Both the position numbers and the translations under genes were made by a program. Of a stretch of DNA of 64,000 nucleotides, positions 6,030 through 8,399 are shown in pieces. The stretch's first letter is position 1. Each line of letters opens with the position of its first letter. The notes beneath the pieces are model-generated. The model saw only the letters and a list, made by a program, of their open reading frames with translations. It was not told the origin of the DNA and did not search any database. This DNA is from Escherichia coli (GTDB lineage Bacteria > Pseudomonadota > Gammaproteobacteria > Enterobacterales > Enterobacteriaceae): NCBI RefSeq assembly GCF_003334385.1, contig NZ_QOWN01000002.1. One strand, 5' to 3'.

Positions 6030-6788
6030 TTAAGTTAAACTTCGGCGGTCAGAAACGATGGCAACCAGAGAAACCGCCTTCTGTGCCTGTTCCAGCACTT
6101 CGCTGTAGGGCGCTCTGGAATCAATCTCAAGAATTTTTGTGCCGTTATAGCCAATCTTCGACATGACACCGATTTTGTCCTGCAGCTCGGCATAGTCATG
6201 GTCAGGCTTGCGGGAGATGGCAGTCTCAATATCAATGCCCAGGCGAATAATTAATTCCGGGCGATATTGCGCCATTTGTTGGTATAAACGCCGTTCGCGC
6301 TGCGCCAGAAACATGCTGATTTTCCCGGTCGCACGTTCGACGCCAATCCCCGGTCCATCATAATAAAAGCCCGAAATTTCAGCCTGCGGGAAGCGATCGC
6401 TGACCACCAGAACGCCACTTTGCGCCAGTCGCTGAACCTTGCGTAGATTCGCCATTCTTCGCAGCGAGAAGCAGTACATAATCACCGCCGCCCATAGCGC
6501 CGGAGATTTGGTTTTCATGCTTTGGGTTTTCGAGGATTTGGCCGCCAGTCGCCGTTCCAGCCAGACGCCAACCAACGGCAATCGTTTGATTTTGTCGCCG
6601 TCTTCGCCGGAGAGCAGCCCCAGATAGCGCCGCTCGGTTTGCCAGTGTTGTTGCAGCGATTTCACCAGGTCGGTGGTCAGTGTGGATTTACCGGTGCCAT
6701 CACACCCGACCACCGCAATCAGCCCCGGAATGTAGTTGGGCTGCGGCGCGGTTGTACTATTAACAGTTTGAGTTTGTAGTGCATCCAT
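6030..6788 (-). CDS. yghR: P-loop NTP-binding protein YghR
   Basis: 252 aa. Walker A VGCDGTGKSTL, then SDRFPQ and SRKPDH motifs. Paralogous to the next two genes. Confidence 0.9.
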   Translation of the reverse strand: MDALQTQTVNSTTAPQPNYIPGLIAVVGCDGTGKSTLTTDLVKSLQQHWQTERRYLGLLSGEDGDKIKRLPLVGVWLERRLAAKSSKTQSMKTKSPALWAAVIMYCFSLRRMANLRKVQRLAQSGVLVVSDRFPQAEISGFYYDGPGIGVERATGKISMFLAQRERRLYQQMAQYRPELIIRLGIDIETAISRKPDHDYAELQDKIGVMSKIGYNGTKILEIDSRAPYSEVLEQAQKAVSLVAIVSDRRSLT

Positions 6789-6819
6789 TCGTTAAATCAT
6801 CCCCTATCCATTTTGGTGA

Positions 6820-7533
6820 TCAGGAAAGCGCGGCGTGAATTGCGCGTAGTGACGCTTGCAGAATTTCATCGGCGGGGTGTCGCCCATCCAGTTCAAGGAT
6901 CTTTGCGCCATTGAATGTCAGTTGCGGCGTAACGGCGATTTTTTCCTGTAACGCTGCCAGTTGGTGGTCAGGTTTACGCGCAAACGCGGTTTGTTCATCA
7001 ATGCCAAGACGAATCAACAATACGGGCAAATAAGATGCCATCCATTGGTACAGCTTCAGCTCGCGCTGCCTTAACATTTTTATCCAACCGTTACCGCCCG
7101 TGGTTTTTGCCAATTGCGGGCCATCAAAGCGAAACCCCGGCACTTCAACCTGCGGGTAGCGGTCGGTGATGAGCAGAAAGCCTTGCTGGCTTTTACACAA
7201 CATTTTGCGAAACTTGTACGCCCGCCAGCAGGAAAGCAGATAGATAACCAGTGCAGTAATATTGCCAGGCGGTGTTGAGGGCTTTTCGTGCACATGTGCC
7301 GCTTTACTTCGCAGATAACGCCCAAAAGGTGCGCCAATAACAGGGAGCTGTGAAATCCATTCGCCAATTCGCCCGGACGATTGCCCGAGATAAATGTGTT
7401 CTGTTGGCATTCTTGCTGCCAGTTCATTTACCAGGCTTGCCGTGAGGGTCGATTTACCTGAACCATCACATCCTACAATGGCAATAACACGCACTGGCGT
7501 GGAATTAATTATTGACATATTACGTTGATTCAC
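6820..7533 (-). CDS. yghS: P-loop NTP-binding protein YghS
   Basis: 237 aa with a GTG start at 7531-7533. Walker A VGCDGSGKSTL, then TDRYPQ and ARKPDH motifs. Confidence 0.9.
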   Translation of the reverse strand: MNQRNMSIINSTPVRVIAIVGCDGSGKSTLTASLVNELAARMPTEHIYLGQSSGRIGEWISQLPVIGAPFGRYLRSKAAHVHEKPSTPPGNITALVIYLLSCWRAYKFRKMLCKSQQGFLLITDRYPQVEVPGFRFDGPQLAKTTGGNGWIKMLRQRELKLYQWMASYLPVLLIRLGIDEQTAFARKPDHQLAALQEKIAVTPQLTFNGAKILELDGRHPADEILQASLRAIHAALS

Positions 7534-7706
7534 GAAAAACCCGGCAGTAAATAATGTATTGAATATTACGTGGTCCGTGCTCAGAATATCCGTTCAACCT
7601 TATTGTGACAATGGTTAATTGTGACATTGACCTGAATTACGCTTTCATAAAAACATATTAACCAAATAAATATTTTTAATGGATATTTAAATTAAAGGAT
7701 ATATTC

Positions 7707-8399
7707 ATGCAGTCAATAACACCTCCATTAATTGCCGTTATTGGTAGCGATGGTTCAGGCAAGTCAACGGTGTGTGAACATCTTATTACCGTTGTCGAAA
7801 AATATGGTGCTGCCGAAAGAGTTCATTTAGGAAAACAGGCCGGAAATGTCGGTCGTGCAGTGACAAAATTACCGTTGATGGGAAAATCCTTACATAAAAC
7901 AATTGAACGAAATCAGGTGAAAACAGCAAAAAAATTGCCTGGACCAGTTCCGGCGCTGGTAATTACAGCGTTTGTCGCCCGTCGCTTACTGCGCTTTCGT
8001 CATATGCTTGCCTGTCGTCGTCGCGGGTTAATTGTTCTAACCGACCGTTATCCTCAGGACCAAATTCCTGGCGCTTACGATGGTACGGTGTTCCCACCTA
8101 ACGTTGAAGGTGGTCGTTTTGTCTCATGGCTGGCAAGCCAGGAACGTAAAGCGTTTCACTGGATGGCGAGCCATAAGCCTGATCTGGTCATCAAACTCAA
8201 TGTTGACCTTGAAGTTGCCTGTGCACGTAAACCCGACCATAAACGGGAATCGCTGGCGAGGAAGATTGCCATAACGCCACAGTTAACCTTTGGTGGTGCA
8301 CAACTGGTTGATATCGATGCCAATCAGCCACTGGAACAGGTGTTGGTTGATGCAGAAAAAGCGATTACGGATTTTATGACCGCGCGTGGTTATCACTAG
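7707..8399 (+). CDS. yghT: P-loop NTP-binding protein YghT
   Basis: 230 aa. Walker [12 protein letters not shown], then TDRYPQ and ARKPDH motifs. Divergent from yghS. Confidence 0.9.

Follow-up and report, generated by a model that had tools for sequence, protein, structure and literature searches.

A triplicated branch of the thymidylate kinase superfamily, YghR, YghS and YghT, as candidate head-group kinases of the Escherichia coli ceramide gene cluster

Introduction

Two described systems bear on the gene cluster considered here, which lies in a 64,000-nucleotide stretch of Escherichia coli chromosome (contig NZ_QOWN01000002.1 of assembly GCF_003334385.1; the whole stretch is called the window below) and includes the three neighbouring genes yghR, yghS and yghT that are our subject. 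One is the sphingolipid locus of Caulobacter, in which the permeases LptF2 and LptG2 are implicated in sphingolipid export and rely on the housekeeping LptB; Fig. 2B of the same preprint draws the corresponding operon of E. coli UTI89 (bioRxiv 10.64898/2026.04.12.717747). The ceramide kinase of that system, CpgB (CCNA_01218), is of the LCB5/diacylglycerol-kinase type and carries a GGDG motif (PMC10331486), and it and the other Caulobacter head-group enzymes, CpgA, CpgC, CpgD and CC_1152/1153/1158, belong to families other than that of YghRST. In E. coli BL21, the proteins AcpR, AasR and Spt have been characterised biochemically (PMC9386255).

The second system is archaeal. In Sulfolobus acidocaldarius, the proteins Saci_2019 and Saci_2020, both annotated as thymidylate kinases, form a heteromeric polyphosphate kinase, PPK3, in which the dTMP-binding residues are not conserved and a positively charged cleft could take polyphosphate; the operon also holds a CHAD protein, PPX and SixA, and dTMP kinase activity was found in a third, separate Sulfolobus paralogue (PMC12995831). 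CHAD domains consist of two four-helix bundles with conserved basic patches, bind polyphosphate, and typically stand in operons of polyphosphate metabolism (PMC6537752).

Together with their neighbour yghQ, the three E. coli genes have long stood without an assigned function in the bacterium that has been studied most. No paper in the literature that we searched assigns a function to yghR, yghS or yghT or ties them to sphingolipids, and the mentions that we found are gene lists, for example from a silkworm virulence screen and the SlyA regulon (PMC5797941). Here we compare the three proteins with known kinases and follow their genes across genomes, and we propose that they may build the head group of a bacterial sphingolipid.

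Results

Three paralogues with a thymidylate kinase fold

The genes yghR (positions 6030..6788, minus strand, 252 aa) and yghS (6820..7533, minus strand, 237 aa, GTG start) run in the same direction 31 nt apart, and yghT (7707..8399, plus strand, 230 aa) diverges from them across 173 nt; the three open reading frames coincide with RefSeq coding sequences of E. coli NCTC86, a strain to which, as to others, positions 1-12200 of the window are 100% identical. BLASTP aligns YghS with YghR (44% identity, E 1e-63) and YghR with YghT (34% identity, E 6e-48) over their full lengths, and in a three-way alignment YghS and YghT are 42% and 34% identical to YghR. This similarity is far beyond chance, and judged by sequence the three are true paralogues. 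They have in common a Walker A motif of the form G-x-D-G-[ST]-G-K-S-T, a central [ST]DR[FY]PQ and a later [AS]RKPDH, all of them invariant or nearly so in 124 homologues and in homologues from 73 loci outside E. coli (a scan of one genome per species gave 80 loci, with which the E. coli cluster proteins were compared, and the counts below use these 73). A first-pass annotation, made from the DNA letters alone, had described three paralogues with these common motifs, two in an operon and one divergent, and it described them correctly; the hydrophobic middle segment to which it pointed is, in YghS, the stretch of residues ~50-116.

An AlphaFold2 model of YghS, built from the 124 homologues (pLDDT, the predicted local distance difference test score, 80; predicted template-modelling score, pTM, 0.77), finds its best matches among solved structures in the thymidylate kinases (TMPKs) 4dwj and 5zb4 (Foldseek probability 1.0, E 6e-7, TM 0.58/0.70), followed by deoxynucleoside and deoxycytidine kinases and adenylate kinases. 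A diverse profile of the YghRST family retrieves canonical TMPKs from the sequences of the Protein Data Bank at E 4e-10 (TMPK range 4e-10 to 1e-6) and pairs the P-loop (GCDGSGKST), DRY and RKPDH of the family with the P-loop, DRY and lid of TMPK, the lid reading 'PdLVirLnvdletAlaRKPdh' in the family profile and 'PDVVFYLNVPPNYAQNRS' in TMPK. The fold is thus that of TMPK, with the P-loop, DR[YFH] and the basic lid following one another as they do there, and the dTMP-kinase or deoxynucleoside-kinase resemblance proposed at first pass is borne out. Where they depart from TMPK is the acceptor region, which falls in the middle segment, is some 40 residues longer than its TMPK equivalent, and differs among the three proteins' groups; residues 51-90 of YghS, with block means of pLDDT 54-64, are the least confident part of the model.

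Judged by the curated cut-offs, the three proteins fall outside the dTMP kinase family proper, all of them scoring too low: YghR, YghS and YghT reach 26.9, 19.2 and 21.1 bits against PF02223 (cut-off 27) and 32.3, 24.3 and 25.8 bits against TIGR00041 (cut-off 83.25). The name 'dTMP kinase', which RefSeq gives to yghS and yghT beside 'nucleoside/nucleotide kinase family protein', is therefore over-specific. Other Pfam and NCBIfam families match the three proteins at the P-loop only; in particular, ABC_tran covers 26-34 residues there at E 0.006-0.03, under its cut-off and with no match to the ABC signature, which rules out an LptB-like transport ATPase and agrees with the first-pass preference for kinases over transport ATPases. 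No DAGK or LCB5 Pfam model matches at E <= 1. We believe the best explanation of the sequence and model comparisons is that YghR, YghS and YghT are a separate branch of the thymidylate kinase superfamily and would be catalytically intact, ATP-dependent phosphotransferases. The first-pass annotation had gone on to call them small-molecule or lipid-head-group kinases; the kinase fold stands, and the lipid-head-group role is one that we still infer. It had not recognised the surrounding genes as a ceramide cluster, the unannotated neighbour as CHAD-like, or the likeness to TMPK in the names that RefSeq already uses.

An old triplication with all three copies kept

The kinases of the 73 loci fall into three orthologous groups that correspond to R, S and T, with 56-60% identity within groups and 36-44% between them. 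Exactly one member of each group is present at 52 of the loci, and most of the others have one or two kinases. The 73 loci are spread over Enterobacterales, Xanthomonadales, Carnimonas, Methylophilaceae, Gallionellaceae, Sphingomonadales, Halieaceae and a Myxococcales metagenome-assembled genome (MAG). Three groups across these taxa indicate, on sequence grounds, that the triplication is old and that all three copies have been retained. In YghS numbering, all groups keep G21, D23, G24, G26, K27, T29, R104, D124 and R125, as well as P127, Q128, D137, G138, E158, the lid R186-H190 and K198, with D124 and R125 conserved at 90% or more in each. By contrast, the loop after strand 2, the counterpart of the nucleoside-monophosphate-binding 'REPGGT' region of TMPK, carries a motif that differs by group: 'HLGKQxGN' in T, 'YLGQSSG' in S and 'RYlGLxSGExGdKIK' in R. 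Such a pattern would be expected if all three were active enzymes that differ in their acceptor, or in the step that each performs on a common acceptor; an arrangement of one enzyme with pseudo-enzymes does not fit it.

Natural fusions join the kinases to one another, S to R in one protein (P0215) and T to R in two (P0216, P0133), and these argue, as far as sequences can, for physical cooperation. The T-R fusion P0133 of Oecophyllibacter is in frame (locus L082, 9932-11287) and adjoins homologues of YghQ (35% identity) and of the 274-aa protein described below (36%). Taken with the conserved catalytic residues and the group-specific acceptor loops, the fusions fit the earlier suggestion that triplication implies three related substrates or a hetero-oligomer.

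Linkage to ceramide genes across genomes

Many of the 73 loci are short or cut contigs, and neighbours were counted within flanks of at most 10 kb. Within this distance of the kinases we find YghQ at 55 loci, the 274-aa protein at 45, Spt at 43, AasR, CerR and AcpR at 42-43, bCerS at 29 and LptF2/G2 at about 30; PitB and Gss, which lie next to the E. coli cluster on the chromosome, are found at 3 and 0. Since the cluster genes recur while PitB and Gss do not, the linkage of kinases and ceramide genes is functional and not inherited synteny, and it extends to Rhodanobacter, Luteibacter, Carnimonas and Methylophilaceae. The co-occurrence with LptFG-like and YghQ genes that the first-pass annotation had suggested looking for is thus present in other genomes.

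Outside Enterobacterales the clusters are compact, and the gene order at two loci illustrates the company that the kinases keep. In Methylotenera (L047) it runs RND-OMF-PAP2-PAP2-T-PEMT/ICMT-S-R-LpxO-like-DUF2147-YghQ-Spt-CerR-AasR-bCerS, where OMF is an outer-membrane factor, and in a member of the Halieaceae (L073) it runs PAP2, T, PEMT, S, R, YghQ, LptF2, LptG2. Pfam assigns the accessory families to Asp_Arg_Hydrox (the LpxO family, 1.5e-51), PAP2, PEMT/ICMT, OEP and DUF2147. These include the kinds of enzyme that hydroxylate, dephosphorylate or methylate membrane lipids, and we take them to resemble the lipid A modifiers LpxO, LpxE/F and LmtA. An RND pump with an outer-membrane factor stands in the cluster at L041, L044, L046, L047, L048, L055 and L074, which belong to Rhodanobacter, Luteibacter, Methylophilaceae and a Lysobacterales MAG and in which LptF2/G2 were not detected; the pair suggests an alternative export route.

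The E. coli cluster

In NCTC86, one strand carries yghO, a fatty acyl-AMP ligase, an NAD-dependent epimerase/dehydratase, an acyl carrier protein and spt, and these first five genes of the cluster are the bacterial ceramide genes cerS/bCerS (yghO), aasR, cerR, acpR and spt; cerR and yghO are tied to sphingolipid synthesis through their orthology to Caulobacter genes. The opposite strand carries the lptG-like and lptF-like genes, a YtfJ-family gene, the gene for the 274-aa protein, yghQ, yghR and yghS, and the divergent yghT, pitB and gss follow. The window begins within this cluster. It contains the 3' part of spt (1..1027, plus strand), with acpR, cerR, aasR and yghO/bCerS upstream beyond its edge, and then, all on the minus strand, the LptG paralogue (LptG2-like, 1062..2141, PF03739 9.5e-70), the LptF paralogue and putative sphingolipid exporter permease (LptF2-like, 2138..3208, PF03739 7e-54), the YtfJ-family gene (3239..3802, PF09695 1.7e-59), which is present at 31 of 32 Enterobacterales-type loci versus 0 of 41 others, the 274-aa gene (3811..4635) and yghQ (4635..5984), whose product is a MOP/PST-family (Wzx-like) membrane protein and putative flippase (PF01943 7e-11, PF13440 4e-7). 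RefSeq labels 1062-3208 'LPS export ABC transporter permease LptG/LptF', and the two are cluster-specific paralogues like Caulobacter LptG2/LptF2; as the latter are implicated in the export of sphingolipid and not of lipopolysaccharide (LPS), the RefSeq names are probably wrong. According to the NCTC86 annotation the E. coli-type cluster has no LptB paralogue. It also has no counterpart of CpgA-D, of CC_1152/1153/1158 or of the LCB5-type ceramide kinase, and no candidate head-group enzyme besides the three kinases. All the proteins concerned are basic, with isoelectric points of 9.3-9.9.

The 274-aa protein has gone without a name: its 120 listed homologues are all 'hypothetical' save one with an automated 'CHAD domain-containing' label, and Pfam finds nothing above threshold in it or in 75 homologues, CHAD appearing in one of the 75 at E 0.003. 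Arg, Lys and His are abundant among its invariant columns, and its AlphaFold model is all-helical (pLDDT 94), with two four-helix bundles. Foldseek is uninformative, the only full-length match being a Ricinus CHAD domain. We describe the protein as CHAD-like on the strength of this predicted fold.

Distant relatives

More distant relatives of the kinases are numerous (2150 representatives in our library at E < 1e-3), and about 52 of the best 150 representatives are 460-535 residues long. Among P0255-P0358 there is a large family of ~470-530 aa with a weak, below-threshold match to a nucleotidyltransferase (NTase)-like domain (PF14907) at its N-terminus and, in those examined, a YghRST-like kinase as C-terminal domain. 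The 274-aa protein was considered as a degenerate form of this NTase-like domain and the idea was rejected, BLASTP giving nothing and hhalign a probability of 0.9%. Some relatives are further fused to a MOP domain of the Polysacc_synt_3 type (P0313, P0358) or to a GT4 glycosyltransferase (P0340). BLASTP between YghQ and the MOP-kinase fusion P0358 is not significant, the link being one of shared Pfam families only. Together, the linkage to YghQ and the MOP-kinase fusions make the association of such kinases with MOP proteins a general one.

Distribution and control within E. coli

At least 80% of yghRST is carried by 4605 of 5426 complete E. coli genomes, and the segment from spt to the 274-aa gene is present in 4087 of them; about 680 have no match to the kinase segment. 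A K-12-like deletion running from yghO to yghQ (L002, L003) removes aasR, cerR, acpR, spt, lptG2, lptF2, the ytfJ-like gene and the CHAD-like gene and keeps yghQRST. One E. coli record (P0019) encodes a 245-aa chimera, with the YghS N-terminus up to DRYPQ and then the YghR C-terminus, which looks like the product of a deletion by recombination between the tandem paralogues; P0023, P0028, P0037, P0041, P0044 and P0048 carry the same signature, at ~75% identity to YghS and ~70% to YghR, and three of the listed proteins are named E. coli. Some strains (NZ_CP155555.1) retain only the last ~170 nt of yghT, adjoining gspL, and a protein 85% identical to the 274-aa protein (P0395) has a GspM domain by Pfam and is named accordingly; both observations suggest larger deletions that fuse the cluster to neighbouring type II secretion genes. 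Strain ECCHD184 (NZ_CP033250.1) has an IS1B insertion in or near the yghS-yghT intergenic region.

That region (7534..7706, 173 nt) is AT-rich and presumably holds the promoters of both genes, and GC content is 0.44 across 7001-8500 (the 5' part of yghS, the intergenic region and yghT) against ~0.52 around. It contains a single promoter-like site on the minus strand (7611-7583); a consensus scan of 5900-8500 for promoters and terminators gave counts not above shuffled controls and is not used as evidence. Overexpression of SlyA is reported to induce yghS of K-12 3.1x (PMC5797941), and the locus may therefore be silenced in laboratory growth. Between the convergent yghT and pitB, a terminator-like hairpin with a 12-bp stem (8410..8438) is likely to be a terminator shared by the two.

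Discussion

A proposed head-group module

Our comparisons show the kinase fold, catalytic residues that are conserved, an ancient orthology in three groups, the linkage of the genes and a predicted CHAD-like fold in the neighbouring protein. From these we propose that YghR, YghS and YghT work together as kinases and give ceramide an anionic head group, a mono- or oligophosphate, before the lipid is flipped and exported, a proposal to which we give about an even chance of being right. The best explanation of the gene set is that YghT, YghS and YghR, the CHAD-like protein and YghQ form a head-group module within the proteobacterial sphingolipid cluster. In such a pathway (dihydro)ceramide is made on the cytoplasmic side of the inner membrane by AasR, AcpR, Spt, CerR and YghO/bCerS, a step that the literature shows for the E. 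coli BL21 and Caulobacter enzymes. The kinases, probably in a complex, would pass phosphate from ATP to ceramide and then to ceramide's phosphate, with an anionic mono- to oligophosphate head group as the product; TMPK chemistry phosphorylates a phosphomonoester and the partner is CHAD-like, so the head group may be a short phosphoanhydride chain. The CHAD-like protein would bind that chain, YghQ would flip the lipid, and LptF2/LptG2, by analogy with Caulobacter and probably with LptB as there, would export it to the outer membrane, a task that an RND pump and outer-membrane factor might take over in other taxa. Within each kinase, Walker A (GxDGxGKST) would bind ATP, the arginine of DR[YF] would clamp donor and acceptor phosphates, the RKPDH segment would be the lid, and the acceptor would be bound by the longer segment, different in each group, that separates strand 2 from the DRY strand.

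Several points weigh against this proposal. What substrate the kinases use, in what order and as what oligomer they act, and what the CHAD-like protein does are points that we infer and do not observe; the CHAD-like assignment is one of fold only, and the segment assigned to acceptor binding is modelled with low confidence. At 30 of the 73 loci spt was not seen within 10 kb, many of these being short contigs or from Sphingomonadales, whose sphingolipid genes are dispersed. In E. coli, about 520 genomes, K-12-like strains included, keep yghQRST and have lost the ceramide and CHAD-like genes, and their kinases may be used without ceramide or may merely be decaying. The Oecophyllibacter module stands beside glycosyltransferases and not spt; given this context and the relatives fused to glycosyltransferase or NTase-like domains, the wider family may act on glycan-linked or other non-ceramide substrates. 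Finally, no sphingolipid species from E. coli is reported in the literature searched.

Other readings of the same evidence have to be considered. If the archaeal parallel is taken at its word, the three proteins would be a PPK3-like heteromeric polyphosphate kinase that, with the CHAD-like protein, makes or consumes free oligo- or polyphosphate, possibly for export by YghQ, and the sphingolipid link would be indirect or absent. We think this improbable: the cPPK3 homologue ST1543 (2plr/4nzy/5h70) matches the YghRST profile at E 0.0019 and over the P-loop only, compared with 4e-10 for canonical TMPKs; every group keeps D124-R125, whereas the regulatory PPK3 subunit has lost the arginine; PPX, SixA and Pst are not conserved at the 73 loci, pitB being adjacent at 3 alone; and the kinases are strongly linked to ceramide and lipid-modifying genes. 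Moreover, E. coli has PPK1, while most predicted owners of PPK3 are without PPK1 and PPK2 (PMC12995831). Polyphosphate may also enter in another way, with a hetero-oligomeric YghT/S/R polymerising a short polyphosphate chain onto ceramide, the CHAD-like protein holding the chain and YghQ flipping the product; we would be rather surprised to find it so. Alternatively, the kinases might add phosphate to soluble precursors of the head group, such as a sugar, glycerate or an amino alcohol, that other enzymes attach to ceramide, following the logic of LicA/LicC or CpgD. Their TMPK and deoxynucleoside kinase relatives do use small soluble substrates, distant relatives are fused to NTase-like (the weak PF14907 match) or GT4 domains, and Caulobacter turns phosphoglycerate into an activated CDP derivative on the way to the head group of its sphingolipid (PMC12275187). 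We nonetheless hold this to be unlikely, as no gene of the E. coli-type cluster codes for a nucleotidyltransferase, a CDP-alcohol transferase or a glycosyltransferase that could make the attachment, the 274-aa protein is unrelated to the NTase-like domain, and three kinases in one precursor pathway would be unusual.

The remaining readings depart further from a head-group kinase. That the three proteins are nucleotide-hydrolysing accessory or regulatory subunits that energise or gate transport by YghQ or LptF2/G2 would account for their consistent association with a MOP protein, fusions included, and for a cluster without an LptB paralogue. However, no MOP flippase is known to depend on an ATPase, LptF2/G2 of Caulobacter rely on the housekeeping LptB, nothing of the ABC signature or ABC_tran is present beyond the P-loop, and the conserved clamp arginine of DR[YF] and the TMPK-type lid are kinase features, all of which makes this very unlikely. 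To the idea that they are genuine dTMP or nucleotide kinases, as their RefSeq names say and as TMPK's place as best fold and profile match would suggest, we attach almost no credence. E. coli has a separate, essential tmk; the scores of 24-32 bits against 83.25 for TIGR00041 and 19-27 against 27 for PF02223 fall short, the acceptor domain has an insertion of about 40 residues, and the operon context is that of a lipid cluster. The TMPK-annotated Saci_2019 and Saci_2020, moreover, proved to be subunits of a polyphosphate kinase (PMC12995831).

The yghRST genes and a vague TMPK-like annotation were already known, and the triple orthology, the role as the only head-group candidates, the CHAD-like partner and the PPK3 parallel were not found reported in the literature that we searched. 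If the three kinases, the CHAD-like protein and YghQ do build and flip an anionic phosphate head group, they would represent a second, convergent route to phosphosphingolipids, through P-loop kinases instead of the LCB5-type CpgB, and a new class of substrate for the thymidylate kinase superfamily; the widespread 'dTMP kinase' annotation would be corrected, and the lipid could be something on the enterobacterial surface that polymyxin and other cationic peptides target, in the way that they target CPG2 in Caulobacter. Should the head group prove to be a polyphosphate chain, many Proteobacteria, with about three quarters of E. coli strains among them, could have oligo- or polyphosphate exposed on the outer membrane and anchored there by ceramide. 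Surface lipids of this kind would be a new class, and the system would be a lipid-primed equivalent, in bacteria, of the PPK3 of archaea.

Comparison with known systems

The relation to Tmk and the deoxynucleoside kinases is one of common fold (probability 1.0, TM up to 0.70 on the target) and of common motif order, with P-loop G-x-[DE]-G-x-GK-[ST]-T, DR[YF] and lid. Unlike Tmk, which is one housekeeping gene, YghRST are three paralogues in a lipid cluster, with ~40 extra acceptor residues, and dTMP is almost certainly not what they phosphorylate. LpxK, the lipid A 4'-kinase, offers a parallel of another kind: it too is a P-loop kinase, and the membrane lipid on which it acts receives its phosphate on the cytoplasmic side and is then flipped and exported by Lpt. 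It differs in belonging to another P-loop kinase family and in being a single enzyme.

In the role that we propose for them, the three proteins would correspond to CpgB, which adds the first phosphate to ceramide and is encoded, together with LptF2/G2, in a bacterial sphingolipid locus. The two folds are unrelated, LCB5/diacylglycerol-kinase type in the one and P-loop in the other, and homology was rejected on that account. With PPK3 the likeness is of a different order, in that both loci combine adjacent TMPK-fold paralogues with a further protein, CHAD in the one and CHAD-like in the other, and that PPK3 works as a hetero-oligomer on a phosphate-chain acceptor. At the same time, the regulatory subunit rPPK3 has lost the arginine of its DRX motif, which groups R, S and T all keep, and where PPK3 has PPX and SixA as neighbours, YghRST stand beside ceramide genes, genes for lipid-modifying enzymes and a MOP transporter; PPX, SixA, NUDIX and Pst are all missing from the neighbour families conserved over 42 non-enterobacterial loci, and a single His_Phos_1 gene lies near the Oecophyllibacter module. 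Membership of the PPK3 clade is not supported by the profile distances, the retained arginine or the neighbouring genes. On comparative grounds, PPK3 would tell us how the YghRST system may work, and not to which family it belongs.

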